DNA from: Candidatus Eiseniibacteriota bacterium
GTDB lineage: Bacteria; Eisenbacteria; RBG-16-71-46; JABDJR01; JAWXBZ01
Length of the DNA stretch: 19,456 nt
Assembly: GCA_034440375.1 (NCBI GenBank)
Contig: JAWXBZ010000093.1
Span: forward strand, 1 to 19,456
Direction: 5' to 3'
The notes under the pieces were generated by a model that was not told where the DNA came from, did not search any database, and saw only the letters and a program-made list of their open reading frames with translations. A program made the translations under genes and the position numbers. Below, one piece after another: positions 21 through 19,413 of this stretch (position 1 is the first letter of the stretch; the number at the start of each line of letters is the position of its first letter).

Positions 21-3370
<3,350 letters not shown>

Positions 3371-3374
<4 letters not shown>

Positions 3375-3901
3375 CCCGCGTCCTGTTCCTGGATGTCGAC
3401 GGCACGCTCACCGATGGCGGCATCATTCTTGGCGAACGGGACGACCTGCGCCGATTCCATGCCCATGACGGGGTCGGCATCCGGCTTGCGATGCTGGCCG
3501 ACATCGAGGTCGTTTTCCTGTCAGCCCGGGAAAATGCCGCGGCCGAACGGCGGGCCAGGGAGCTCGGTGCCCGGGCCATTCTCGGAGCGGCCAGGAAGCA
3601 TGAGCACGTGGCACGCGTCTGCGCCGAACTGGGGTGCACCACCGCCGACGCCGCTTTCGTCGGCGACGACTTACAAGACTTCTCGGGGATGAAAGCGTGC
3701 GGCCTGGCCATCGCCGTGGGCGACGCGGTCGCCGAGGTTCGGGAGGTGGCTCACTACGTCACTATCCGGAATGGCGGTTACGGAGCGGTTCGAGAGGCGG
3801 TCGAGTGGCTGCTCCGGCGGGAAGGGCGCTGGGAGGAAACGCTGTCGCAGTTTCTTTCGACCAGCGATTTCGTGATCCGGAAGGACGCGGGCGCGCGGTG
3901 A
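3371..3901 (+). CDS. kdsC: Kdo-8-phosphate phosphatase (HAD superfamily)
   Basis: LDVDGTLTDG, HDGVGI, FVGDDLQD, GGYGAVREAVE; GTGA overlap with the kdsA stop. Confidence 0.92.
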
Positions 3902-3917
3902 CGGGCGAACGCTGCCC

Positions 3918-4904
3918 ATGAGCGATGATCGCGAGGCACTTCTGGCCGCCGCCCGTCAGGTCATCGAGGCCGGGCGTGATGCCATCATCGGCCTCTCCGA
4001 CGCACTCGACGAACGATTCCTGGCCGCGGTCGAGCTGCTCGACAAGGCGCGGGGACGCATCGTCGTGACCGGCATCGGAAAGTCGGGTCTTGTCGGCGCC
4101 AAGATTGCGGCCACGTTGAGCTCGACCGGCACGCCGGCCCTGTTCCTGCACACTTCCGACGCGCTCCACGGTGATCTCGGAGTCGTGACGAAGGATGATG
4201 TGGTGCTGGCCTTCTCGAAGAGTGGCCGGACAGCGGAGTTGACGCAATTGTTGCCGCTGCTGGCGCGCCTTGGCGTGCCCGTGGTGGCCCTGGTGGCTGA
4301 TCTCGATTCACCGTTGGCCCGGGCGGCCCGGATTACGCTGCCGCTTGGACGGGTCCGCGACGCCGGACCGGAGGATCTGATTCCCACGGCTTCGACGACG
4401 GCGGCAATGACCCTTGGCGACGCGCTCGCCGTGGCCCTCATGCACCGGCGCGGCTTCGATGCGCGAAGCCTGGCATTCATTCACACCGGCGGCCTGATCG
4501 GCCGCCAGGCCGGATTGACGGTGGCAGAGATCATGCACTCCGGCGAGGCATTGCCGGCGGTGCCCCAGACGGCCACGCTCCGGGAAGCCCTGGTCGAGAT
4601 CCTGGGAAAGAAGCTCGGTGTGACGACGGTCACCGGGGCCTGTGGCCGCCTGGCCGGCATCCTCACCGACGGCGACCTGAAACGGATCTTTCTGTCCGAC
4701 ATGGGCGCCGCGGCGCTGGACCAGCCGGTGTCTTTGTTCATGAGCAATCGTCCGCGCACGATCAATCGGGAGGCACCCGTGGCCGAGGCGGTTCGGGTCA
4801 TGGAGGACCCGGCTCAGGGATTTGTGACCTCACTGGTGGTGATTGATGATGTCGACCGCGCGGCCGGAATCGTGCACCTGCATGATTGTCTGAAGCCAGC
4901 CTGA
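3918..4904 (+). CDS. kdsD: Arabinose-5-phosphate isomerase (KpsF/GutQ family; SIS domain plus CBS pair)
   Basis: IVVTGIGKSG, KIAATLSSTGTPA, ALHGDLG, PTASTT, GDALAVAL, GILTDGDL, C-terminal HLHD; located in the kds cluster. Confidence 0.92.
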   Translation: MSDDREALLAAARQVIEAGRDAIIGLSDALDERFLAAVELLDKARGRIVVTGIGKSGLVGAKIAATLSSTGTPALFLHTSDALHGDLGVVTKDDVVLAFSKSGRTAELTQLLPLLARLGVPVVALVADLDSPLARAARITLPLGRVRDAGPEDLIPTASTTAAMTLGDALAVALMHRRGFDARSLAFIHTGGLIGRQAGLTVAEIMHSGEALPAVPQTATLREALVEILGKKLGVTTVTGACGRLAGILTDGDLKRIFLSDMGAAALDQPVSLFMSNRPRTINREAPVAEAVRVMEDPAQGFVTSLVVIDDVDRAAGIVHLHDCLKPA

Positions 4905-4955: not shown

Positions 4956-5000
4956 TACTTATATGATGACAAATCACGAGACAATTTCCCGGGAGCAGCG

Positions 5001-6485
5001 ATGACGGCACAATCGACCACCGATCTGGGTCGGATGATTCGCTGCCATGCCGGTCGATTCCTCATGGAATCACTGGCTCGGTGCCCCCGCCCGATTGGAC
5101 TGCGAATCGGGCGCCGCCTTGGATCGCTCGGATTTCGGCTGGTCCGGAGGGATCGATGGATCGCCCGAGACAACCTCGCGCACGCCTGGCCGGAACTGTC
5201 CGAAGTGGAACAGGGGGTTCTGGCCCGTGCGGTGTTCGAACGCCTCGGAGAGAACATCTTCGACGTGGCGGCCCTTCCGCGTTGGAGTCCGGAAGAACGG
5301 CGGCGCCGTCTTGACGTGGCCGGTCTTGATCATCTGACCGCCGCCCTGGCGGCGGGGCATGGCGTCATCCTGATCGGGGGTCACCAGGGGGCATGGGAGC
5401 TCATCGCACCCGCGCTCTCCGATCGAGGCGTGTCGGTCATTGGGCTTGCCCGGCCGATTCGTGAAGCCCGGCTCGATCAGTGGCTGGATGCGCATCGCGC
5501 AGCAATCGGTACGCAAACCATCAAGGTCGGTGGCCTGGCTGCCGCCCGCAGGGCGCACCGGATCCTCGCGGATGGCGGCGTCCTCGGGCTTCTGATCGAT
5601 CACCGTGTTCGAAACGGGGGGCGATGGTTCGACTTCTTCGGCCGCCCGTCACGATTTGCCACGGGGCCAGCCCGGCTGGCCATCGCCACCGGGGCGACCC
5701 TGGTGCCGGTGACCATCGGCCGGCGCGAGGACGGCGGGCATCGAATCACGATCGGCCCGGCCATTCTTCCCGTCGGGGCGGGACCTTTGTCCGTCGACCG
5801 TCTGCTGGGGGAGGCCGTTGCGGCGCTGGAGCAGATGATCCGCCGGGACCCGGCCTCCTGGGCCTGGATGCATCCCCGATGGGGCCGGCCGGTGCGGCTC
5901 TGCGGGGCGAAAACCTCCAGCGCCGCCGTCCAACCTGGCCTGTCACTTCCAGCTCTGCTCACGCTTTCATCTCTCCTTGCCGGTGCGGCCCTGTTCGCGA
6001 CGGGATGCAGCGAGTCAAAGCCCCCGGGTGGCGCTCCCGCCAACGAGGAGTCGAGTTCCATGCTTGCCGGCGTCACGCTTCGGGAAACTTTCGACGGACA
6101 GCTGCGCTGGGTTCTCAAGGCCGATTCCTCGGAGACCTTTCGCCAGCCCGATCAGACCATTGCCACCCGGGTGCATGTCGATTTCTACAACTCGACCGGG
6201 CAGATCACATCGGTCCTGACGGCTGACGAGGGCGTCGTCCAGCGCAGCAATAACGACATGACGGCCCGGGGTCACGTCCTCGTCGTCACGGCACAGGGCG
6301 ATACGCTGACCACCGAACGGCTCGACTGGAGCAGCGTGCAAAACCGCGTGAAGACCGATCTGCCGTTCCGCCTGGCCCGGCCGGACGGCGTGATGACCGG
6401 GGTGGGCTTCGAGAGCAATCCCGATCTCACTGACTACACGACACAGCAGGTGCGAATCGATGCCCGTGACCGTCCCCATGACTGA
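5001..6485 (+). CDS. Fusion: LpxL/HtrB-family lipid A acyltransferase (aa ~1-294), hydrophobic segment (aa ~314-335), LptC-like beta-jellyroll domain (aa ~336-494)
   Basis: N-part: HQGAWE (HxxxxE), [26 protein letters not shown]-part: [49 protein letters not shown], typical of LptC. Directly upstream of lptB, with no internal stop codon. Confidence 0.85.
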
Positions 6486-7236
6486 TCGCGCCGGGCGCTC
6501 CGCCCTTGCGTCCACGGACGTTCTCTCGGCCATCGACCTGGTCCGCTACTACGGCAAGACCCGGGTGGTCGACGGCGTCAGCCTCACGGTGAGCCCCGGG
6601 CAGGTTGTGGGGCTTCTGGGTCCGAACGGTGCCGGCAAGACGACGACTTTCTACATGATCGTGGGCCTCCTGGCGCCAACATCGGGGAGCATCCGACTGG
6701 GCCAGGCCGACCTGACGCGCATGCCGATGTACCGCAGAGCCCGGCTCGGCGTCGGCTATCTGCCGCAGGAGCCCTCCGTCTTTCGAAAACTGTCGGTGAA
6801 GGAGAATATCGAGGCCATCCTCGAAACGATGCCGATGACAAAAGTGGAGCGACGTGCCCGCCTGGAGGAGTTGCTGGCCGAGCTCGATTTGGGGAAGCTC
6901 GCCGATCGCAAAGCTTGGAACCTGTCGGGTGGTGAACGGCGGCGCCTGGAGATCACGCGCGCGCTGGCCTCGTACCCGCGATTCCTCCTGCTCGACGAAC
7001 CGTTCGTTGGCATCGATCCGATCGCGGTTGCCGAGATCCAGGAGATCGTGCTGCGACTCAAGGCGAAGGGACTGGGGATTCTGATCACCGATCATAACGT
7101 GCGCGAGACCTTGTCCTCCACCGACCACGCGTTCATTATGTTCCAGGGGCGCATCAAGCTCTCGGGAACGGCCAGCCAACTGGCGGCGGATCCCGAGGCC
7201 AGGCGCCTCTATCTCGGAGAGAAGTTTCAACTGTGA
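6478..7236 (+). CDS. lptB: LPS export ABC transporter ATPase
   Basis: [80 protein letters not shown]. Start is ATG 6478 (or 6460), overlapping the upstream stop. Confidence 0.96.
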
Positions 7237-9107: not shown

Positions 9108-10100
9108 GTGGCCACGCATGACGGGGGAACCGATTCGGTAAAGGAAATTCCGGTCTCCCGGCTCGCCGAACAAAAGGACATGGAGTTGACGCTCCTCACG
9201 GAGTCGATTGATTCACCCGTGCCGATCACCGTCAGCGACATCAATCGACCGGGCCTGGCCATGGCCGGTTTCGTCGAGAACTTCCTGGTCGAGCGAATCC
9301 AGGTCATCGGGCAGACGGAAGTGGCCCTCCTCGAGAGCCTCACGCCACCGGCCAGGTATGAGGCCATCAACCGGCTCTTGCAGTTCCAGGTGCCGTGCAT
9401 CGTGGTGGCGAAGGACCTCGACCTGCCGGTCGAACTGATCGAGGGGGCCGCCCGTCGGGGCATTCCCGTTCTCAAGACCCCGATGTCGACCACCCCGTTC
9501 ATTCACGAGTTGACGGCCTATCTGGATGATGTCTTCGCGCCGACCGTGGCAATCCACGGATCGCTGGTCGATGTCTATGGCGTTGGCCTCCTGTTCACCG
9601 GGCGGAGCGGCGTCGGCAAGAGTGAGTGCGCGCTCGACCTGGTGGAGCGCGGACACCGGCTGGTGGCGGATGACGTGGTCACCGTGAAGCGACGACACAC
9701 CAGTGTCCTGATCGGCCAGGCCAACCAGACCCTCGGCCATTACATGGAGATTCGGGGCATCGGCCTCCTGGATCTGCAGAGCATCTTCGGTATTCGGGCC
9801 ATCCGGTTTCAGAAGCGCATCGAAGTGGAGGTGCGCCTCGAGGATTGGGACAACAGTCAGGCCTACGAACGGATCGGTCTTGATGACAAGATGACCTCGC
9901 ACCTCGGCATCAAGATTCCCATCGTGACGGTTCCGATCAACCCGGGGAAGAACATCACGGTCATCGGTGAAGTCATCGCGCTGAACTACCTGGTCAAGGC
10001 CTATGGCTTCGATCCGGCGCGGGAGTTCGAAAAACGCCACAGCGAGATGCTGGGCAAGAATGCCCGTCTGCAGCGGTTGGCCCGGGACGACTCGGAGTGA
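9108..10100 (+). CDS. hprK: HPr kinase/phosphorylase
   Basis: INRPGLAMAGF, HGSLVDVYGVGLL, Walker A GRSGVGKSE, RGHRLVADD, MEIRGIG; start uncertain (GTG 9108). Confidence 0.96.
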   Translation: MATHDGGTDSVKEIPVSRLAEQKDMELTLLTESIDSPVPITVSDINRPGLAMAGFVENFLVERIQVIGQTEVALLESLTPPARYEAINRLLQFQVPCIVVAKDLDLPVELIEGAARRGIPVLKTPMSTTPFIHELTAYLDDVFAPTVAIHGSLVDVYGVGLLFTGRSGVGKSECALDLVERGHRLVADDVVTVKRRHTSVLIGQANQTLGHYMEIRGIGLLDLQSIFGIRAIRFQKRIEVEVRLEDWDNSQAYERIGLDDKMTSHLGIKIPIVTVPINPGKNITVIGEVIALNYLVKAYGFDPAREFEKRHSEMLGKNARLQRLARDDSE

Positions 10101-10504
10101 CCGTTCCCGCCCGGGTGCCGGCCCTTCTGGTGGGACACGGGAATTTTGCCCGCTCGCTCTTGTCCGTGGCCGAGGCGATTTCCGGACCGGTCGATGACAT
10201 TCCCTGCCTTTCCAACGAAGGGCGCTCGCCTGAAAGATTGGCGGCCGAAATCAAGTCGGGGCTTGATCGACTCGGACTGCCGGCTCTGCTCCTGGTCGAT
10301 GTGGCCAATGGATCGTGCTTCGCCGCCGCCCGCCGGGCCTCGCGCGGCCTCCGTGACGCCCACCTGCTCACCGGCGTCAATCTACCCCTCCTGCTCACCT
10401 TCCTCCAGAATCGCGATCGATTGGGCGTGGAGGAACTCGTGGCGCATGTGCTCGAGCGGGGGCGAACCGGTCTTGCCCGACACCGGGATGGAGACGGCAC
10501 GTGA
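10097..10504 (+). CDS. PTS mannose/fructose/sorbose-family IIA component
   Basis: LLVGHGNFA (phospho-His), LLLVDVANGS, TGVNLPLLL; GTGA overlap. Confidence 0.9.
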   Translation: MTVPARVPALLVGHGNFARSLLSVAEAISGPVDDIPCLSNEGRSPERLAAEIKSGLDRLGLPALLLVDVANGSCFAAARRASRGLRDAHLLTGVNLPLLLTFLQNRDRLGVEELVAHVLERGRTGLARHRDGDGT

Positions 10505-10989
10505 GTGTTCTCCTGGTCCGGATAGATGACCGTCTCATCCATGGTCAGGTGTCGGTCGGCTGGGCCACCCACCTCCGACCCGACCTGATTCTTGTTCTCG
10601 ATGACGAGGTGGCTGCGGATAACTGGGAAAACGACCTGGTCTGCGCGGCCTGTCCGGATTCCGTACGCGCCCGCGTCATGCGAATCGCGGAGGGCTCCCG
10701 TTTCCTTTCCGACGAAGCACCGTCCGCCGATCGAATCGTCGTGCTGTTGCGGGGAACGAAGCAGGCGCGCCTGATGCTCGATGGTGGATTCCGGCCCCAA
10801 TCGATCAACATCGGCGGACTGCACCATCACGAAGGGAGTCGCAGCCTTCTTCCGTTCGTCTATCTCGATTCGTCGGAAGTGGCCGATCTGCGTTACCTGG
10901 CGGATCATGGTGTCGGGCTGAGCGCCCAGGACCTGCCGGGCAATCGAAGCGTCGACCTGGTGCCGCTCCTTCCTGATCCCGTCCGGTGA
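10501..10989 (+). CDS. PTS mannose/fructose/sorbose-family IIB component
   Basis: LVRIDDRLIHGQV signature, INIGGLH, AQDLPG; GTGA overlap. Confidence 0.93.
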   Translation: MSVLLVRIDDRLIHGQVSVGWATHLRPDLILVLDDEVAADNWENDLVCAACPDSVRARVMRIAEGSRFLSDEAPSADRIVVLLRGTKQARLMLDGGFRPQSINIGGLHHHEGSRSLLPFVYLDSSEVADLRYLADHGVGLSAQDLPGNRSVDLVPLLPDPVR

Positions 10990-11011
10990 GCGGTCATTCG
11001 GCGGCCGCTTC

Positions 11012-13183
11012 GTGAGGCCGATCACCTTCCTGTTCGGCGTCCACAACCACCAGCCGGTTGGCAATTTCGATTGGGTGATCGAGGACGCGTATCAGAAAGC
11101 CTACAAGCCATTCCTCGACGTGCTCGAGCGGCACCCCGGCATACGTCTCGCGCTGCACAACTCGGGCATCCTGCTGGACTGGTACGACCGGAACCACCCC
11201 GAATATCTCCAGCGCATCGGCGTCCTGGTGAAACGGGGCCAGATCGAACCAATGACCGGCGGATATTACGAACCGATTCTGCCGTCGATCCCGGACGCCG
11301 ACAAGGTCGGCCAGATTCGCAAGATGAGTGCCTGGATCGAAGAGCGCTGGGGCCAGCCGCCGACGGGCCTCTGGCTTACCGAACGCGTGTGGGAACCGAC
11401 GCTGGTTGGCCCCCTGGTGGAAGCCGGGGTCCGCTACCTCATGGTCGATGACGCCCATTTCCTTGCTGCCGGCGCGGAGCCGGACCGACTCTGGAACTGG
11501 TGGTTGACCGAGGACAATGGTGCCTCCGTGGGCGTTTGGCCGATTTCCAGGCAGCTGCGATATCTCGTCCCCTTTGAGCCGCCCGAGCAGACGATCGATC
11601 TGTTGAGGGATCTGGCGGCCGGCGGGACCGACCGGGTGGCCCTGCTGGCGGACGACGGCGAAAAGTTCGGGGTCTGGCCGGACACGTTTGAGCGCGTTTA
11701 CGCCGGGGGGTGGCTGGACAAATTTTTCACGCTCCTTGCGGCGAATGCCGACTGGCTCAAGATGGAACTTCCGGGCCAGGTCGCTCGCTCACGTCGTCCG
11801 GCCGGACGCATCTACTTGCCGACGGCGTCCTACGGCGAGATGATGGAGTGGGCGCTCCCGACCAGTGTGCAGAAGGTGTATCACCCCTTCCATGCGAAAC
11901 TGGAGCGCGACCAGGCGCCGGAAGCTCGTTTCGTGCGCGGGGGATTCTGGCGAAACTTCCTGGCCAGGTATCCCGAGTCGAATCTGATGCACAAGCGGAT
12001 GCTCGACTTGAGGCGCCGACTTGTGGCCGGCAGCCCTCCCGATGAAACGCGCACGGCTGTTCTGGATGACGTCTGGCAGGCCCAGTGCAATTGCGCCTAC
12101 TGGCACGGCGTCTTCGGCGGTCTCTATCTGCCGCACCTGCGCGACGGGTTGTACCGGCACATTCTCAGTGGTCAGGTGCGTCTGGATCAGGCCGTCGCGG
12201 GGGGGAAGCCGTTCCTCCGCGTCGAGCGACTCGACCTGGATGTCGACGGCGAGGAGGAGATCCTGCTGTCGAATGCGAGTCTCGGCATTCTGCTGGCGCC
12301 GGCCAGAGGCGGTGCCATCGAATCGATCGACTATTACCCGCGGCTGCGCAATCTCTCCCACGGCATGACGCGCAGACCCGAGGCCTATCACGACGCCCTG
12401 ATCGCCGCCGGAACTCCGGGGCCAACAGAACCCGCCGCAACCGTGACAGCCGCCCCGGCCGACGACGGTGCCATCCAGAGCATTCATGACCGGGTCGAGA
12501 TGAAGGAGCCCGGACTGGATCGAAAGCTCGTCTTCGACTGGTATCGCCGCCTCTCGCTCCTCGATCATCTCCTAAAGGACGATGTGACGATCGAACAGTT
12601 CGATCGCGCCGATTTCGCCGAGCAGGGTGATTTCCTGACGCAGCCCTATGAAGGACAGATCCTTCCGTCGGCCGACCGGTCCCGGGTGACACTCTCCCGC
12701 GAGGGGACCGTCTGGCTTTCCGGCCGAAGCCGTCAAATGCGCATCGAAAAGGTGGTGGCGATGGAGGCGACGACCTCGCGGGTCGACATCGAGTATCACC
12801 TGACCTCGCGGGAGGCGACATCGATGGAATTTCGATTCGGTGTCGAGTTCAATTTCACCATGCTGGCCGGCGACGCCCCCGACCGCTGGTACGAGATCGA
12901 TGGCCAAAAGCCCGTCGATCAGCCGAACCTGGGCGGGCGTGGCGAACACAAGGGCGTGCGGGGGGTGAGCCTTCACGATGCCTGGGAAGAATTCTCGATT
13001 CACCTTTCCTGGTCGCCGGCCGCCGATCTGTGGCGGGTGCCCATTGATACCATCTCGCAGTCCGAAGCCGGTTTCGAGCGGGTCTATCAAAGTTCCTGCC
13101 TCGTGCCGCACTGGTGTGTCCGCCTTGCGCCCGGCGAAGTCTTCAATCTCTCACTGTCACTCACGGTGAACGACCGGGCCTGA
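11012..13183 (+). CDS. GH57 alpha-amylase/4-alpha-glucanotransferase (C-terminal DUF1925/DUF1926-type domains), cytoplasmic
   Basis: HNHQPVGN, GGYYEPIL, GLWLTERVWEP (nucleophile Glu), DDGEKFGVWP (acid/base Asp), QCNCAYWHGVFGGLYLPHLR, SQSEAGFERVYQ; no signal peptide. Confidence 0.92.
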   Translation: MRPITFLFGVHNHQPVGNFDWVIEDAYQKAYKPFLDVLERHPGIRLALHNSGILLDWYDRNHPEYLQRIGVLVKRGQIEPMTGGYYEPILPSIPDADKVGQIRKMSAWIEERWGQPPTGLWLTERVWEPTLVGPLVEAGVRYLMVDDAHFLAAGAEPDRLWNWWLTEDNGASVGVWPISRQLRYLVPFEPPEQTIDLLRDLAAGGTDRVALLADDGEKFGVWPDTFERVYAGGWLDKFFTLLAANADWLKMELPGQVARSRRPAGRIYLPTASYGEMMEWALPTSVQKVYHPFHAKLERDQAPEARFVRGGFWRNFLARYPESNLMHKRMLDLRRRLVAGSPPDETRTAVLDDVWQAQCNCAYWHGVFGGLYLPHLRDGLYRHILSGQVRLDQAVAGGKPFLRVERLDLDVDGEEEILLSNASLGILLAPARGGAIESIDYYPRLRNLSHGMTRRPEAYHDALIAAGTPGPTEPAATVTAAPADDGAIQSIHDRVEMKEPGLDRKLVFDWYRRLSLLDHLLKDDVTIEQFDRADFAEQGDFLTQPYEGQILPSADRSRVTLSREGTVWLSGRSRQMRIEKVVAMEATTSRVDIEYHLTSREATSMEFRFGVEFNFTMLAGDAPDRWYEIDGQKPVDQPNLGGRGEHKGVRGVSLHDAWEEFSIHLSWSPAADLWRVPIDTISQSEAGFERVYQSSCLVPHWCVRLAPGEVFNLSLSLTVNDRA

Positions 13184-13229
13184 GGTCCGGCCGGCCCTGG
13201 CCGGCATCACGAATACCGGGAGTTCGTCC

Positions 13230-14000
13230 ATGGACGGCGACGCTTTTCAGATCCTCCTTCTCCTGCTGCTCGGGGCCTGGGCCGCCGTTGATACCGCGGC
13301 CTGGGGCCAGTTCATGGTCGGACAGCCACTCGCGGCCGGCTGGCTGGCCGGCGTCATTGTTGGCGAACCGCTGGCTGGCCTCCTGATGGGGGCTGCCTTG
13401 CAGATGCTCTGGAGTCGACTGGCACCGGTTGGTGCGGCGGCCTATCCCGATGTCGGCCCCGCCACGGTGGGAGGGGTTGGTCTCCTGAGCTTCTGGCCCG
13501 GGCCGCGGGCGCCCCATGACGGCGTGCTCGATTGGCCGGTGCGTCTCGGTTTTCAACGGGTTCCCGAGGGGTGGCAACTCGAGACGTCCCCGCTGGCGAT
13601 ACTCGCCGGTATCGGTCTGGCGCTGCTGGCCGGGTGGGCCGGTCAGCGGTTGGTCGCCCGGATGCGGCACGCCAACGCGGACCTGGGTCGTGTGGCGGAT
13701 GAGGCGGCCCGTCGCGGTGACTTTGGTGGCGTCGAGCGGGCCAATCGACTCGGCCTCCTCCGGGCGGCAGTTCTCGGTACTGCCCAAACCGGTGCCATCC
13801 TTGCTGCCGGGTGGCTGGCGGCGATCGCCCTGGCCAGGGTTCTGCCCGCGGCTCCAATCGGCTCCAACCCGGGAGTTCATCTCTTCTGGTGGATCGCCCT
13901 CGCCGCCCTCGGCACGTCGCTCTGGTCCGGCGTCCGGCGCGACTGGATCTGGATTGCCTCCGGTCTTCTGGCCGGTACCACCCTGGTCGGAATTCTCTGA
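13230..14000 (+). CDS. PTS mannose-family IIC permease subunit
   Basis: Multi-TM protein; GQFMVGQPL, GLLMGAALQMLW, PVGAAAYPD; GGGAG SD. Confidence 0.85.
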   Translation: MDGDAFQILLLLLLGAWAAVDTAAWGQFMVGQPLAAGWLAGVIVGEPLAGLLMGAALQMLWSRLAPVGAAAYPDVGPATVGGVGLLSFWPGPRAPHDGVLDWPVRLGFQRVPEGWQLETSPLAILAGIGLALLAGWAGQRLVARMRHANADLGRVADEAARRGDFGGVERANRLGLLRAAVLGTAQTGAILAAGWLAAIALARVLPAAPIGSNPGVHLFWWIALAALGTSLWSGVRRDWIWIASGLLAGTTLVGIL

Positions 14001-14001
14001 C

Positions 14002-14817
14002 ATGAGGGTCGACGAGCGTCGTCCGACACTTCCCGAAGCCCGACTCGGGCGGCGGCGCCATCTCGCGCTCCTCGGCCGGTCGCTGCTGCTGCAATCCTCG
14101 TGGAGTTTCGAACGAATGCAGGCGGTCGGTTTCGCCTCGCTTCTGGCGGGAGAGGGCCGGCGACTGACGAAAGGGCGACCCGATGCGGCGGCCGCATTCC
14201 TCAACCGGCAGCTGATGCTCTTCAACACGAATCCGCCCCTGGCTGGCTACCTGGCCGGGGTCATCCTGCGCCTCGAGGAAGAGGTAGCCCGACACGAGGC
14301 GGAGAGGCCCGACGAGGCCGCCCGGACATTGGAAGAGATTCGGCGATTCAGGCGGGCCGCTGCCAGCGCTTTCGCCGCCTGGGGTGATCGATTTTTCTGG
14401 GCCACTCTGCGTCCCGTGGCCACCGGCCTCGGAGTCCTGCTCGTCATACTGGGCGGGGCCTGGGGGGCGGTGGCCTGGCTGATCGTCTACAATGCCGCCC
14501 ACCTTTACTATCGCTACCAGGGCCTGTCCGACGGATACCGTTTTGGTCCGGCCGTGGCGAAACGGGTTGCCGAGTCGATTCTGAAACGGTTGCCGGATGG
14601 CGTCCGGCCCCTGGGCCTTCTGGCCGTGGGGGCCTTGATACCCGTCTCCCTGGCGGCGGGGAAGGCGGCTTTCGGGTGGCCCACGGCGGCCGGGTTTCTG
14701 GCAACGGGCCTGTTGATGGCGCTGGTTCTAAGGCGCCGGGGCGGTCTCGGCTGGGCCTGGGGCTTTGTGGCAGTGCTGTTCGGTTTCGCTTGGGCCGTCC
14801 GTCTGCACGGTCGATGA
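14002..14817 (+). CDS. PTS mannose-family IID subunit
   Basis: LQSSWSFERMQAVGF, FNTNP, GDRFFWATLRP, YN...YRYQG...GYRFG. Start is ATG 14002, 1 nt after the IIC stop; the ORF-track extension to 13516 is spurious. Confidence 0.9.
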   Translation: MRVDERRPTLPEARLGRRRHLALLGRSLLLQSSWSFERMQAVGFASLLAGEGRRLTKGRPDAAAAFLNRQLMLFNTNPPLAGYLAGVILRLEEEVARHEAERPDEAARTLEEIRRFRRAAASAFAAWGDRFFWATLRPVATGLGVLLVILGGAWGAVAWLIVYNAAHLYYRYQGLSDGYRFGPAVAKRVAESILKRLPDGVRPLGLLAVGALIPVSLAAGKAAFGWPTAAGFLATGLLMALVLRRRGGLGWAWGFVAVLFGFAWAVRLHGR

Positions 14818-14845
14818 ATAGTGATGATTTGCGGGATGGAGCTCG

Positions 14846-15115
14846 ATGCCTGAAATCACGATCAAGATCACGAACGAAAAGGGGATGCATGCCCGGGCCG
14901 CGGCACTTTTTTCGCGCGAGGCCAGCCTCCACAAGGCCAGCGTTTTCGTTGCCCGGGAGGGGCTCGAGGTCAACGGCAAGAGCATCATGGGAGTCCTGAT
15001 GTTGGCCGCCTATTGCGGCAGTGAGATCACGATCAAGACGGACGGGGATGGGGCCGACGATGCGATGACCGCTCTGGTCGGGCTGATCGAGAACAAGTTC
15101 GGCGAGGATTCCTGA
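14846..15115 (+). CDS. ptsH: Phosphocarrier protein HPr
   Basis: NEKGMHARAAA (His15), VNGKSIMGVLMLAA (regulatory Ser46), C-terminal FGE. Confidence 0.96.
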   Translation: MPEITIKITNEKGMHARAAALFSREASLHKASVFVAREGLEVNGKSIMGVLMLAAYCGSEITIKTDGDGADDAMTALVGLIENKFGEDS

Positions 15116-15145
15116 CGTGACGACAAACAGGATCGTTGACAGGCG

Positions 15146-16948
15146 ATGAGCGGGGAAACCTGGTACGACGGCGTGGCCGCCTCGCCCGGAATCGTCATCG
15201 CCGAGGCCAGACGCTTCGTGGCGAAGGACATCGATGTCGAGGAAACCGTGCTGGCTCCTGACGACATCACGGACGAGATTTCACGTTTTCGCCGCGCCAT
15301 CGACGACGCCCGCCAGGAATTGAACGATGTCCGCGCGACCACCGCCGAACTCCTGGACGAGGAGCACGCCCAGATTTTCGACACCCACCTCTCGATTCTC
15401 GACGACCCGATGGCTTTCGATGACACGATCGGCCATATCCGTTCCGAGAAAAAAGGGGCGGCCTGGCTGTTCCGGCGAAACCTGTCCCGAATCGCCGATG
15501 CTCTCGAGCAGCGCGGCGACCCCTACTTCAGCGAACGCGCCCAGGACATTCGTGATGTGAAGCGGCGCGTCCTGCGCCGTCTGCTTGGCGCTCCGGACGC
15601 CGGACGTCCCGTGCTCGACCGCCCGGGGATCCTGGTCGCGCATGAGATCTCGCCCAGCGACGCGGTCTTCCTTGATCCCAGGATTGTCCTTGGCCTGGTT
15701 CTGGACATCGGCGGGCGGACCAGTCATGCCGCCATCATGGCCCGTTCGCGGGGTATTCCGGCCGTATCCGGACTCGACACGACCAGTCATGAGATCAATT
15801 CCGGCGATATGCTCATCCTGGACGGCCTGAAGGGCCGGGTCATCTCGAATCCACTGGAAGAGACGCTGTTCGACTACCGCCGAAGGCTTGTCCGATGGCG
15901 CGAAGCGGAGGTTCGCTGCGAGGCGCTCCTCACACTGCCGGCGGAGACGATTGACGGACGAATGCTCACGCTGGCCGCCAACATGGAAATGCCCGAGGAG
16001 GCTGATCAGGCGCTGGCGCGCGGGGCCATGGGCGTGGGACTTTTTCGGACCGAGTTTTTTCTCGTCCGCCATCACCGCTTCCCGGACGAGGAAATCCAGT
16101 ACCAGGCCTATCGGAGCGTCGTCGAAAAAATGGCCCCGTGGCCGGTGATCATCCGCACACTCGACGTCGGGGGCGACAAGTTTGCCAGCTATCTCGGGGC
16201 GGCCCCCGAGGACAACCCGTTCCTTGGCATGCGCGGCATCCGGTTCCTGCCGGACCACCGCGAGCTCTTTCGCAGTCAGATCCGGGCGGCGTATCGGGCC
16301 AGCGGTCACGGCAAAGTGAAGATTCTCCTGCCGATGGTGTCGGGCCTCGAGGAAGTCCGCCATATGCGCGCCCTGTGCGCGCAGGTGATGACCGAGTTGA
16401 CGGCCGAACAGAAGGCGTTCGACCCGGAGGTCGAACTCGGCATCATGGTCGAAGTGCCGTCCACGGTCATCCTGGCCGACCTCCTGGCCCGCGAAACCGA
16501 TTTTTTCAGCATCGGTTCAAACGACCTGATTCAATACACGCTGGCGGTCGACCGCGGTTCCTCGCGCGTGGCTCATCTGTACGAACCGCTCCATCCCGCC
16601 GTCCTCCGGTCGATCCGGCGCGTGGTCGATGTGGCCCATGCCGAAGGGCGATGGGTCGGCATCTGCGGCGAGATGGCCGGCGACCCCACGGCGGCCGTCC
16701 TGCTCATCGGTCTCGGCCTCGATGAATTTTCCGTTGGCTCCTCGCTCCTCCCGGAGGTAAAGCGGGTCATCCGCGGCGTCAGCTACGCGGAGGCGCGCGG
16801 CTGGGCCGACCACGCGGCCACGTTGGCCACCGCCCTTGAGGTTCGAGGGTTCATGGAGCCGCTCATGAACCAACGATTTGCCGACATCCTCGGCGACACC
16901 GGGAACGGAAACGGGTCACCACATGCCGCAACCGGCGTGGCTCCATGA
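15146..16948 (+). CDS. ptsI: PEP-protein phosphotransferase (Enzyme I, no GAF domain)
   Basis: GVAASPGI, GGRTSHAAIMARS (phospho-His), GVGLFRTEF, IIRTLDVGGDK, NPFLGMRGIR, FSIGSNDLIQY, GICGEMAGDP. Confidence 0.97.
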   Translation: MSGETWYDGVAASPGIVIAEARRFVAKDIDVEETVLAPDDITDEISRFRRAIDDARQELNDVRATTAELLDEEHAQIFDTHLSILDDPMAFDDTIGHIRSEKKGAAWLFRRNLSRIADALEQRGDPYFSERAQDIRDVKRRVLRRLLGAPDAGRPVLDRPGILVAHEISPSDAVFLDPRIVLGLVLDIGGRTSHAAIMARSRGIPAVSGLDTTSHEINSGDMLILDGLKGRVISNPLEETLFDYRRRLVRWREAEVRCEALLTLPAETIDGRMLTLAANMEMPEEADQALARGAMGVGLFRTEFFLVRHHRFPDEEIQYQAYRSVVEKMAPWPVIIRTLDVGGDKFASYLGAAPEDNPFLGMRGIRFLPDHRELFRSQIRAAYRASGHGKVKILLPMVSGLEEVRHMRALCAQVMTELTAEQKAFDPEVELGIMVEVPSTVILADLLARETDFFSIGSNDLIQYTLAVDRGSSRVAHLYEPLHPAVLRSIRRVVDVAHAEGRWVGICGEMAGDPTAAVLLIGLGLDEFSVGSSLLPEVKRVIRGVSYAEARGWADHAATLATALEVRGFMEPLMNQRFADILGDTGNGNGSPHAATGVAP

Positions 16949-16985
16949 CGTCGATCGAATTCGTGCCCGATCGAGTGGCTCCATG
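16937..16985. repeat. 11-bp direct repeat GTGGCTCCATG (16937-16947, 16975-16985) enclosing a 7-bp inverted repeat TCGATCG/CGATCGA
   Basis: Read directly from the sequence at the ptsI / pgi-pmi junction. Confidence 0.7.
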
Positions 16986-18080
16986 GCGTTGATCGATGCC
17001 GCCAGGGCCCGCCAGCTTGATGACTTAGCCTTCGTGAGCCGCCTGGACTCGGCGGGGATGCTCCAGCGCGTCGCCGAGTTTCCCGCCCAGTTCGCCGTGA
17101 GGCCATCGGGTGAGGAACTCCATGACCTGGAACAGCTGCCTCCGGCCCGCCACTTGTGGATTGCGGCGATGGGCGGCTCGGCCTTCGCCGGCGAGATGCT
17201 GGCGGCCGGCCTGTATGTATCCGGCGTCGAGACTTCGCTGATCCGGGGGTATCAACTGCCGGCTGCCGCCCGTCCCGGGGACTGGCTGCTGACCATCTCG
17301 TACTCCGGCAATACCGAGGAGGCCCTCTCGGTCTTCGACGAGGCCGAGGCGCGGGGTCTTTCCCGGGTGGCGATCACGTCCGGCGGGGCGCTGGCCGAAC
17401 GCGCCCGCGCCGCCGGGGTGCCGCTTCTCATGCTGATCGGTGGATCGCCCCCCCGCGCGGCGGCAGGACTGGCCTACGCAGCCGCCTTTGAAGTTGGCGC
17501 ACGACTTCTCGCGCTGGGGACCGGGAGTCCCGAATGGCTCACGGATCCCGGGATGCTCGGCCAGCATCTGTCGCGCTGCGCTGGACTCTGGGGGCCGGAG
17601 GCGCCGACGGAACGTAACGAGGCCAAGCAAATCGCGCTGGCGCTGGACGGCCGTCTGCCGGTCATTTATTCCGGGGTCGGTCCCCCCGAGGCGGCTGCGC
17701 TGCGCTGGCGGACGCAAATCAACGAGAATGCGAAGGCACTCTGTCACACGGCCGCCGTCCCGGAGCTGGATCATAACGAGGTGGTTGGCTGGAGCGGCCC
17801 GGATGACTTCGTCCGGAGTGCCACGGTCGTCTTCCTCCGCGAGGGGGAGGAGGATCCGGGCACCAAGCGACGGCTGAGCGCCACACGCGAGTGGCTCGAG
17901 GGGCGCGGCGTGGTCACGCTTCTGGCCCGGGGGGAGGGAGGAAGCCCCCTCGAGCGCCTCTGGTGGCTCTGTCACCTCGGCGATTGGGTCAGCGTGTACC
18001 TCGGAGCGTTGCGCGGCGTTGATCCCACGCCCGTCACGGCCATCGATGAATTGAAAAGCCGCCTCAAAGAGATGTCGTAA
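16983..18080 (+). CDS. Bifunctional phosphoglucose/phosphomannose isomerase (SIS family)
   Basis: AMGGSA, ISYSGNTEE, ITSGGAL, PPRAA, WRTQINENAK, PELDHNE, VDPTPVTAIDELK. Start uncertain; ATG 16983 is the first in-frame ATG after ptsI. Confidence 0.9.
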   Translation: MALIDAARARQLDDLAFVSRLDSAGMLQRVAEFPAQFAVRPSGEELHDLEQLPPARHLWIAAMGGSAFAGEMLAAGLYVSGVETSLIRGYQLPAAARPGDWLLTISYSGNTEEALSVFDEAEARGLSRVAITSGGALAERARAAGVPLLMLIGGSPPRAAAGLAYAAAFEVGARLLALGTGSPEWLTDPGMLGQHLSRCAGLWGPEAPTERNEAKQIALALDGRLPVIYSGVGPPEAAALRWRTQINENAKALCHTAAVPELDHNEVVGWSGPDDFVRSATVVFLREGEEDPGTKRRLSATREWLEGRGVVTLLARGEGGSPLERLWWLCHLGDWVSVYLGALRGVDPTPVTAIDELKSRLKEMS

Positions 18081-19107: not shown

Positions 19108-19413
19108 ATGACCGATGACATTCGAATTCTGATCGACCCGGAGCGAATCGCCGACATCTGCCGCCGCCACCGAATTCGACGGATGTCACTGTACGGGTCT
19201 GTCATTCGCGACGACTTTACCGCGGACAGCGATGTGGGCGTCCTGGTCGAGCTCGATCCGGAATATCTCCCCGGCCTCGAGTACTTCGGCATCACCGTCG
19301 ATCTGGAAGCTCTCTTCGGTCGCCGCGTGGATGTCGTCCGCCCTACCGAGTTAAACCGTTATTACAAGGCCGATGTCCTCAGGGAGGCGGTTCCGATCTA
19401 TGTCGCGGCGTGA
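19108..19413 (+). CDS. Minimal nucleotidyltransferase (MNT) family antitoxin
   Basis: 101 aa; LYGSVIRDDFTADSDVGVLVE, LEALFGRRVDVV; overlaps the downstream HEPN-like start. Confidence 0.88.
   Translation: MTDDIRILIDPERIADICRRHRIRRMSLYGSVIRDDFTADSDVGVLVELDPEYLPGLEYFGITVDLEALFGRRVDVVRPTELNRYYKADVLREAVPIYVAA

Follow-up and report, generated by a model that had tools for sequence, protein, structure and literature searches.

A lipid A acyltransferase–LptC fusion of Candidatus Eisenbacteria with a conserved internal lipobox: a probable polyprotein of the lipopolysaccharide pathway

Acyltransferases of the LpxL family act on the inner face of the inner membrane, before core assembly and flipping by MsbA, and LptB2FG extracts lipopolysaccharide from the outer leaflet. 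LpxL and LpxM bear an N-terminal transmembrane (TM) helix. Internal cleavage of a bacterial chain is exemplified by FbcH of Bradyrhizobium japonicum, a cytochrome b-c1 polyprotein that is cut at an internal signal peptidase I (SPase I)-type site.

With regard to LptC, the consulted parts of Wilson and Ruiz (2022; PMC9544173) describe the natural proteins as mostly bitopic, with few predicted lipoproteins across 12 groups that do not sample the phyla treated here (Table S1 gives mean lipoprotein probabilities of 0-0.20), and the TM helix as dispensable in wild-type Escherichia coli. An engineered E. coli lipo-LptC is mostly, although incompletely, processed according to the same source, which states, without showing the data, that the modified protein does not function. 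An LptC carried on a predicted lipid and not on a TM helix, BB0464, is reported for Borrelia burgdorferi in the consulted part of 10.1101/2022.12.21.521298; there the signal is an ordinary N-terminal one of 14 aa and the organism lacks LPS, whereas the signal described below is internal.

We have analyzed a window of 19,456 nt from a Candidatus Eiseniibacteriota genome, in which a single ORF joins an LpxL-family domain to LptC. The features of the locus are the following:

2631..4904, + strand: upstream Kdo genes, kdsA-like (DAHP_synth_1), kdsC-like (HAD) and kdsD-like (SIS-CBS), found with Pfam and named from domains and gene order
4992..4995, + strand: Shine-Dalgarno (SD)-like GGAG ahead of ATG5001, anti-SD pairing -6.3 kcal/mol
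5001..6485, + strand: fusion ORF of 494 aa (LpxL-family acyltransferase, predicted internal lipoprotein signal, LptC), from ORF translation, Pfam and TIGR04409
5046..5882, + strand: Lip_A_acyltrans domain, aa 16-294, with amphipathic N-terminal helices and no TM helix (Pfam, hydropathy, AlphaFold2, Foldseek)
5382..5399, + strand: HX4E motif H128-E133 (HQGAWE), which aligns with the H...D motif of PatA (alignments)
5883..5933, + strand: variable cytoplasmic linker, pLDDT <50, containing a non-conserved GTG at 5892-5894 (alignment, AlphaFold2)
5934..6005, + strand: hydrophobic h-region of the putative internal lipoprotein signal, predicted helix 316-333 (alignment, AlphaFold2, lipobox rule)
5997..6008, + strand: lipobox A333-T334-G335|C336, a predicted Lgt/LspA site with Cys336 at 6006-6008 (invariant Cys in 18/18 aligned fusions)
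6009..6056, + strand: polar periplasmic tether of fixed length, 24-28 aa from the Cys to a conserved domain motif (AlphaFold2, alignment)
6057..6464, + strand: LptC beta-jellyroll, aa 353-488 (Pfam, TIGR04409, AlphaFold2, Foldseek)
6460..7236, + strand: lptB, overlapping the stop of the fusion, start at 6460 or 6478 (ORF calls, NCBIfam)

The first-pass annotation had described an uninterrupted 494-codon ORF with an LpxL/HtrB-like and an LptC-like domain and had suggested a profile search, which bears this description out. The translation of 5001-6485 is stop-free, and both Pfam domains score above their cut-offs: PF03279 (Lip_A_acyltrans) over aa 16-294 with 146.2 bits (gathering 22.3, E 1.6e-42) and PF06835 (LptC) over aa 358-475 with 55.2 bits (21, E 8.8e-15). 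TIGR04409 (LptC) is also exceeded (82.6 bits vs a cut-off of 38), and every NCBIfam acyltransferase equivalog cut-off is missed; TIGR02207 (LpxL) gives 91.9 bits, or 93.9 with the domain alone, vs 297.8. The positions given earlier for HQGAWE, for the end of WAWMHPRW (5882) and for the hydrophobic stretch are also correct. We take the HX4D/E motif to be the catalytic one. Its form here, H128-E133, is at least 90% conserved across the 18 fusion rows, and the title of a PDB entry calls E127 of LpxM catalytic.

The AlphaFold2 model (mean pLDDT 80, pTM 0.58) contains two well-folded domains joined by a disordered junction with a single helix, 316-333. According to Foldseek, the acyltransferase domain matches PatA and LpxM (E 1e-14 to 1e-15; TM-score to target 0.70-0.88; GPAT-type fold), and the LptC jellyroll matches 3MY2 and 4B54 (TM to target 0.84-0.85). 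The first domain thus shares with LpxL/LpxM/HtrB (PF03279; Acinetobacter baumannii LpxM 5KN7, Mycobacterium smegmatis PatA 5F2Z/5OCE) the Pfam family, the HX4E motif and the fold, and it is encoded in a kds-lpt operon; it differs in falling below the equivalog cut-offs, in lacking the N-terminal TM helix and in its C-terminal signal and LptC. The first-pass annotation had noted that the acyltransferase N-terminus has no anchor and may use the LptC helix. The first part stands (best 19-residue hydropathy 0.25), but as a reason for the fusion the second does not, since all 24 unfused relatives listed are also without an N-terminal anchor (best 19-residue hydropathy 0.4-1.5). The second domain resembles E. 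coli-type LptC (TIGR04409; 3MY2, 6MIT) in its jellyroll, in clearing the family cut-off and in lying directly 5' of lptB; however, a lipobox replaces the uncleaved TM anchor, a 300-aa enzyme stands in front of it and no free LptA was found.

The Kdo genes lie 5' of the fusion, which is followed by lptB-rpoN-hpf-hprK. Between 4800 and 6600, one promoter-like site was found vs 0.3 expected, none of them within the ORF, and two terminator-like sites on the opposite strand vs 1.1 expected. The fusion is the sole match for PF03279 and the sole match for the LptC domain in the source genome (93.7% complete), which also encodes waaA, lpxK and, as Lpt partners, the adjoining lptB, two LptF/G genes and LptD. 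No lptA lies between lptC and lptB at this locus, and the search of the source genome turned up no free LptA. Throughout 41 genomes, every match to PF03968 or TIGR03002 (27/41 each) falls within a frame of 859-1789 aa. The LptD of the source genome has 1219 aa (G000:C67; L229 2438-6097, minus strand) and holds LptA-like matches in its N-terminal part, which has relatives in 31/31 genomes. This part models as approximately 490 residues of continuous strands (pLDDT 88.6); in structure it is most like LptD and resembles LptA and LptC locally, its length keeping the global TM-scores low. LptD may therefore carry the LptA function, and the Eisenbacteria Lpt bridge would depart from the textbook at both ends, with a beta-stranded LptD N-terminus of about 490 residues in place of a free LptA and an LptC without a TM helix.

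The fusion is real and conserved, and misassembly does not account for it. Run X3 provides a contig identical to the window over 5377-6600, and a contig of run X6, from another study, spans 5319-6238 (920 nt) in frame over the junction with 31 substitutions and one 3-nt insertion. The only other genome of the family likewise has the fusion in frame, and a protein search returned 38 matches, with both Pfam domains in 18 clusters (query included) at 47-73% identity to the query; relatives carry the name Ca. Eisenbacteria. The one point in favor of an assembly error is that the junction is bridged by two of the four runs (X3 and X6) and not by X5 and X7. Taking into account the in-frame junction in the independent strain of X6, in the second genome of the family and in 18 clusters with identities as low as 47%, we regard an assembly error or an isolated lost stop as extremely improbable. 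The first-pass annotation had allowed for an indel or stop in the reads, and for close relatives that all have separate genes and an unconserved junction. The two bridging contigs show no stop and no frameshift, X3 being identical and X6 in frame, and the relatives include the 18 fused clusters, in which Cys336 is invariant. In the same protein search, 11/38 matches were fusions of the LpxL-family domain to a heptosyltransferase (PF03279+PF01075). These also join an LpxL-family domain to an LPS-pathway protein, but both of their halves are cytoplasmic, with no membrane crossing and no cut site expected.

Among predicted proteins, the fusion recurs in other Eisenbacteria lineages, in Gemmatimonadota and in an Omnitrophota family. 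Of 206 genomes of the phylum, 35 match a two-domain profile at E 1e-55, a threshold at which weaker fusions could be missed, and six give one stop-free match across both domains, namely G000 and G001 (family f1), G006 (one of the eight in f2, which include one locus cut by a contig end) and all three of f13. G063 and G066 have the acyltransferase and lptC in one frame, separated by a stop. A profile search of 1.84 billion representatives yielded, among the matches listed, 147 new 50%-cluster representatives, 19 of them with both domains; judged by eye, 17 of these have a lipobox, two an SPase I-like signal and none a plain TM segment, and one is named Gemmatimonadota. The Omnitrophota protein has an extra LptA-like domain, giving an LpxL-LptC-LptA order in about 550-770 aa (L115, L099, L039, family of G206). 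A search for it gave 167 matches, and all 120 listed bear both Pfam domains, 119 of them being scorable for the lipobox. Within this family 34/35 genomes match, and the 30 loci examined comprise 26 fused, three split and one incomplete; 150 other genomes drawn from Omnitrophota gave no stop-free full-length two-domain match. The Omnitrophota fusions are one family and not independent events.

At least 12 changes of the fused state are needed on a tree built from 76 acyltransferase domains; this tree comes from a quick search (LG+G4) that left out seven redundant rows, two partial proteins and two duplicate ones, and it includes few Omnitrophota matches. A single origin of the fusions was rejected by the AU test (p 1.5e-41 for all 38 fused rows, p 0.0019 for the 20 Eisenbacteria rows). 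The changes in the tree do not separate gain from loss, and P0159, L272 and L276 look like re-splits. The idea that all of family f1 is fused was also discarded: P0159 is an unfused acyltransferase within the clade, and P0173 is a free LptC with its own signal.

The first-pass annotation was right about the position of the hydrophobic segment ahead of LptC, but it missed the lipobox A333-T334-G335|C336 at the end of this segment. As far as sequence can tell, the segment is a lipoprotein signal and not an uncleaved LptC helix of the E. coli type, in fused and unfused relatives alike. In the alignment of 18 fusions, Cys336 is the only invariant column of the 67-residue junction between W294 and E362, and it sits after the hydrophobic stretch and a small residue and before a polar tether. 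Of what defines a bacterial lipoprotein, the h-region, the lipobox Cys and the polar tether are present, and the N-terminal position is not, the Cys being residue 336. Where the genes are separate, lptC opens with a short signal that ends in the same lipobox and usually overlaps the acyltransferase stop. A lipobox rule holds in 92 of 98 distinct adjacent acyltransferase-lptC loci, about half of which belong to related Poribacteria, and 9/9 fused loci are among the 92.

A single rule recognizes a lipobox in 18/18 Eisenbacteria-type fusions and 113/119 scorable Omnitrophota fusions. The six Omnitrophota misses are two with G-C behind an acidic residue, two SPase I-like by eye and two unclear; P0062 and P0086, both Omnitrophota fusions, have no Cys and no clear cut site. 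A genome-wide lipobox rule, similar to but not the same as the junction rule (both are our own), was applied to 3605 putative ORFs and found 71 N-terminal vs 10 internal matches, and the one other internal match inspected was a mis-started gene. The A-T-G|C-S motif fits the consensus of the 71 N-terminal lipoboxes, and lspA, lgt and lolA are present in the genome. A cleavable-looking signal was seen in 26/26 fused Omnitrophota loci, and TM-type LptC in 18/29 unfused ones; these 29 are the best-scoring of the 150 other Omnitrophota genomes, with 10 lipoprotein, one SPase I-like and 18 TM-anchored LptC, the last two classes having been called by eye. Ascertainment partly explains why the fusions seem always to keep a cleavable signal, since a lipobox LptC is the rule (92/98) in the lineages that the profile reaches.

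The linker from the enzyme to the Cys varies from 29 to 49 aa in the 18 Eisenbacteria fusions and from 31 to 114 aa in the 113 Omnitrophota fusions, whereas the distance from the Cys to the jellyroll is held at 24-28 aa in the Eisenbacteria fusions, as expected if only the geometry of the mature lipoprotein is selected. These distances bear on the proposal of the first-pass annotation, in which the hydrophobic segment is the LptC TM helix and tethers the enzyme to LptB2FG as a synthesis-export checkpoint. The chain would then stay whole, perhaps lipidated by Lgt yet uncut, its helix would lie in the LptF/LptG gate like the TM helix of E. coli LptC, and the acyltransferase, putatively held by LptB2FG, would couple acylation to export. 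The topology proposed earlier (enzyme in, TM, jellyroll out; N-in/C-out) appears self-consistent in the AlphaFold2 model, repeated fusion could reflect selection, and two Omnitrophota fusions are without the Cys. The uncharged stretch is also longer in fusions (medians 17 and 22 vs 15), which fits either cleavage or an uncleaved anchor. In addition, the TM helix of E. coli LptC has a role in the extraction cycle and lipo-LptC, once modified, was called non-functional, according to the consulted parts of PMC9544173.

However, an uncleaved helix needs no invariant G-C, and the substitutes tend to be SPase I-like sites. The lipobox is conserved in fused and unfused relatives, and a cytoplasmic linker of 29-114 residues next to a fixed periplasmic tether also speaks against this model. 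The genes are separate in most relatives (a stop-free two-domain match in 6/206 genomes of the phylum), and split forms recur within fused clades (P0159; L272, L276). Since core sugars and the established MsbA flipping step come between LpxL and LptB2FG, a tether would not channel substrate, which leaves the checkpoint weak. We therefore consider an uncleaved tether unlikely.

Another explanation is that one frame yields two products, LptC from an internal and possibly non-canonical start, with its lipobox kept for this short product, and a read-through acyltransferase with a dispensable LptC tail. Some ATG, GTG or TTG occurs in the linker of 24/26 fused Omnitrophota loci and 6/8 Eisenbacteria loci, that of L004 with an SD of -6.3. 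Poribacteria lptC, in turn, seemingly begins without a nearby canonical codon. Nevertheless, no start is conserved in position, and a Met before the h-region is absent in 13/18 and 81/119 fusions. The 72-codon linker of G021 is devoid of ATG, GTG and TTG, and G006 has only one such codon, inside the h-region. A credible LptC start of its own, i.e., an SD of -6 or better or a start within 12 nt of the upstream stop, was found in 1/8 fused vs 15/22 separate Eisenbacteria-type loci, and an ATG lies 14-45 codons 5' of the Cys in just 7/26 fused Omnitrophota loci. The GTG at 5892, which the first-pass annotation had singled out as a possible separate start for LptC, is not the explanation: its anti-SD pairing is no better than that of 26% of 276 internal codons, and the close strain of X6 reads GCG there while keeping G335-C336.

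Separate genes have an n-region with a net charge of 2.5, which has fallen to 0.83 and 0.51 in the fusions, so that both the internal starts and the positive n-region of the signal appear to decay in fusions. A missing start codon is itself no proof, because the SD values of real starts within the window span 0 to -7.2, some of them weak, and Poribacteria lptC seems to have no canonical start near its signal though it is separate. Taken together, we hold an internal start to be improbable.

Some observations on the Poribacteria loci deserve mention in their own right. In L037-L108, a lipobox lptC follows the acyltransferase in a different reading frame, and in most loci no ATG, GTG or TTG separates the stop from the h-region. 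Upstream of the Cys, 49/49 loci, which are close kin, keep the lptC frame free of stops over at least 54 codons, and most have a TTG about 50 codons upstream. A long overlap start, a non-canonical start or recoding into a fusion could account for this arrangement; a slippery site, sought by eye in 19 loci, was not conserved.

Partial or conditional processing can also be envisaged, in which LspA would cut part of the pool, so that cut and tethered forms coexist in a ratio that may tune export. The consulted parts of PMC9544173 give 10-15% of an engineered N-tagged lipo-LptC as unprocessed in E. coli, and those of 10.1101/2022.12.21.521298 propose LptC lipidation as a checkpoint in Borrelia. 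The sequence bears no sign of regulation, however, and the linker is unconserved, and we find this explanation quite improbable. The most likely reading is a polyprotein, ahead of the tether and the internal start, with partial processing behind them.

We propose that LpxL-LptC is probably a polyprotein from which Lgt and LspA release an acyltransferase anchored by its tail and an LptC anchored by a lipid. We prefer this reading because Cys336 is the sole invariant column of the junction, the lipobox is kept in 18/18 and 113/119 fusions, internal lipoboxes are few genome-wide, LptC has mostly lost its own start, one origin is rejected, the n-region charge has decayed, lspA and lgt are encoded, and the same genome joins ModB to a porin via an SPase I-like signal. 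P0062 and P0086, without Cys, speak against cleavage, as does the loss of function stated for modified E. coli lipo-LptC, and the longer uncharged stretch also fits an uncleaved anchor.

In these lineages, lptC would code for a lipoprotein and overlap or abut the stop of an upstream lipid A acyltransferase gene, and loss of this stop would have fused them many times. One chain would be translated from ATG5001, where the ORF and its SD are observed. The enzyme would remain cytoplasmic, as the topology suggests, and the old signal, now internal, would send the LptC domain across the inner membrane. Lgt would then place diacylglycerol on Cys336, and LspA would cut between Gly335 and Cys336, as lipobox conservation and the presence of both enzymes in the genome indicate. 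The first product, of 335 aa, would be an acyltransferase that ends in a membrane tail and that, from its family and operon, may add a secondary acyl chain to Kdo-lipid A. The second would be a 159-aa lipid-anchored LptC that could link LptF to the long N-terminal jellyroll of LptD, with no free LptA. The fusion would fix a 1:1 synthesis without necessarily keeping the enzyme and LptC together, and it could be nearly neutral.

Like FbcH, this polyprotein would be a single bacterial chain that gives rise to two membrane proteins by cleavage at an internal signal; however, FbcH yields two subunits of one complex through an SPase I-type site, whereas here an LspA site would separate an enzyme from a transporter subunit. 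In more general terms, we think there is a reasonable case that a lipoprotein signal about 300 residues into a chain can serve as a polyprotein cut site, with Lgt and LspA acting behind a folded cytoplasmic enzyme, that this evolved many times at the lpxL-lptC junction in several phyla, and that the outcome is an LptC naturally anchored by a lipid within a bridge that has no free LptA. A bolder idea, to which we give little credence, is that the helix remains attached to the acyltransferase after the cut and inserts in trans into the LptF/LptG gate, so that the enzyme would act as the brake of the extractor.

If the proposal is true, LspA would naturally cut a polyprotein far from its N-terminus; such proteins would escape N-terminal signal predictors, and hidden lipoproteins may be common. 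Lineages whose LptC has no TM helix would also bear on the question of what that helix is for. Databases label such proteins LptC or lauroyltransferase, overlooking the other half and the lipid anchor. Both domains belong to known families; what appears new to the literature searched is their architecture, together with the internal LspA site that it implies. This literature, sparse in subscription papers, gave no published report of an LpxL-LptC fusion or internal lipobox, no earlier case of LspA cleaving a chain as far in as residue 335, and nothing that treats lipopolysaccharide and LptC together in Omnitrophota; the consulted sections of Antunes et al. (PMC5007114) mention neither lpxL nor such a fusion.

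Several other fusions were noticed. A 606-aa ORF (G000:C25; L307 1363-3183) links a ModB permease to Porin_O_P via an SPase I-like internal signal. P0278 (522 aa) has the same design with another cargo, as an SPase I-like signal behind its LpxL-family domain leads into an exported domain that is unrelated. P0162, P0167, P0169, P0170 and others among the representatives are tandem double acyltransferases of about 470-650 aa.

Downstream of rpoN-hpf-hprK, the window carries mannose-type PTS genes (IIA, IIB, IIC, IID) with HPr-like and EI-like ORFs at 10097-18080, interleaved with genes for a GH57 glucanotransferase and a SIS-type isomerase. Further on, at 19108-19413, there is a 101-aa ORF resembling a minimal nucleotidyltransferase, presumably of the antitoxin type.
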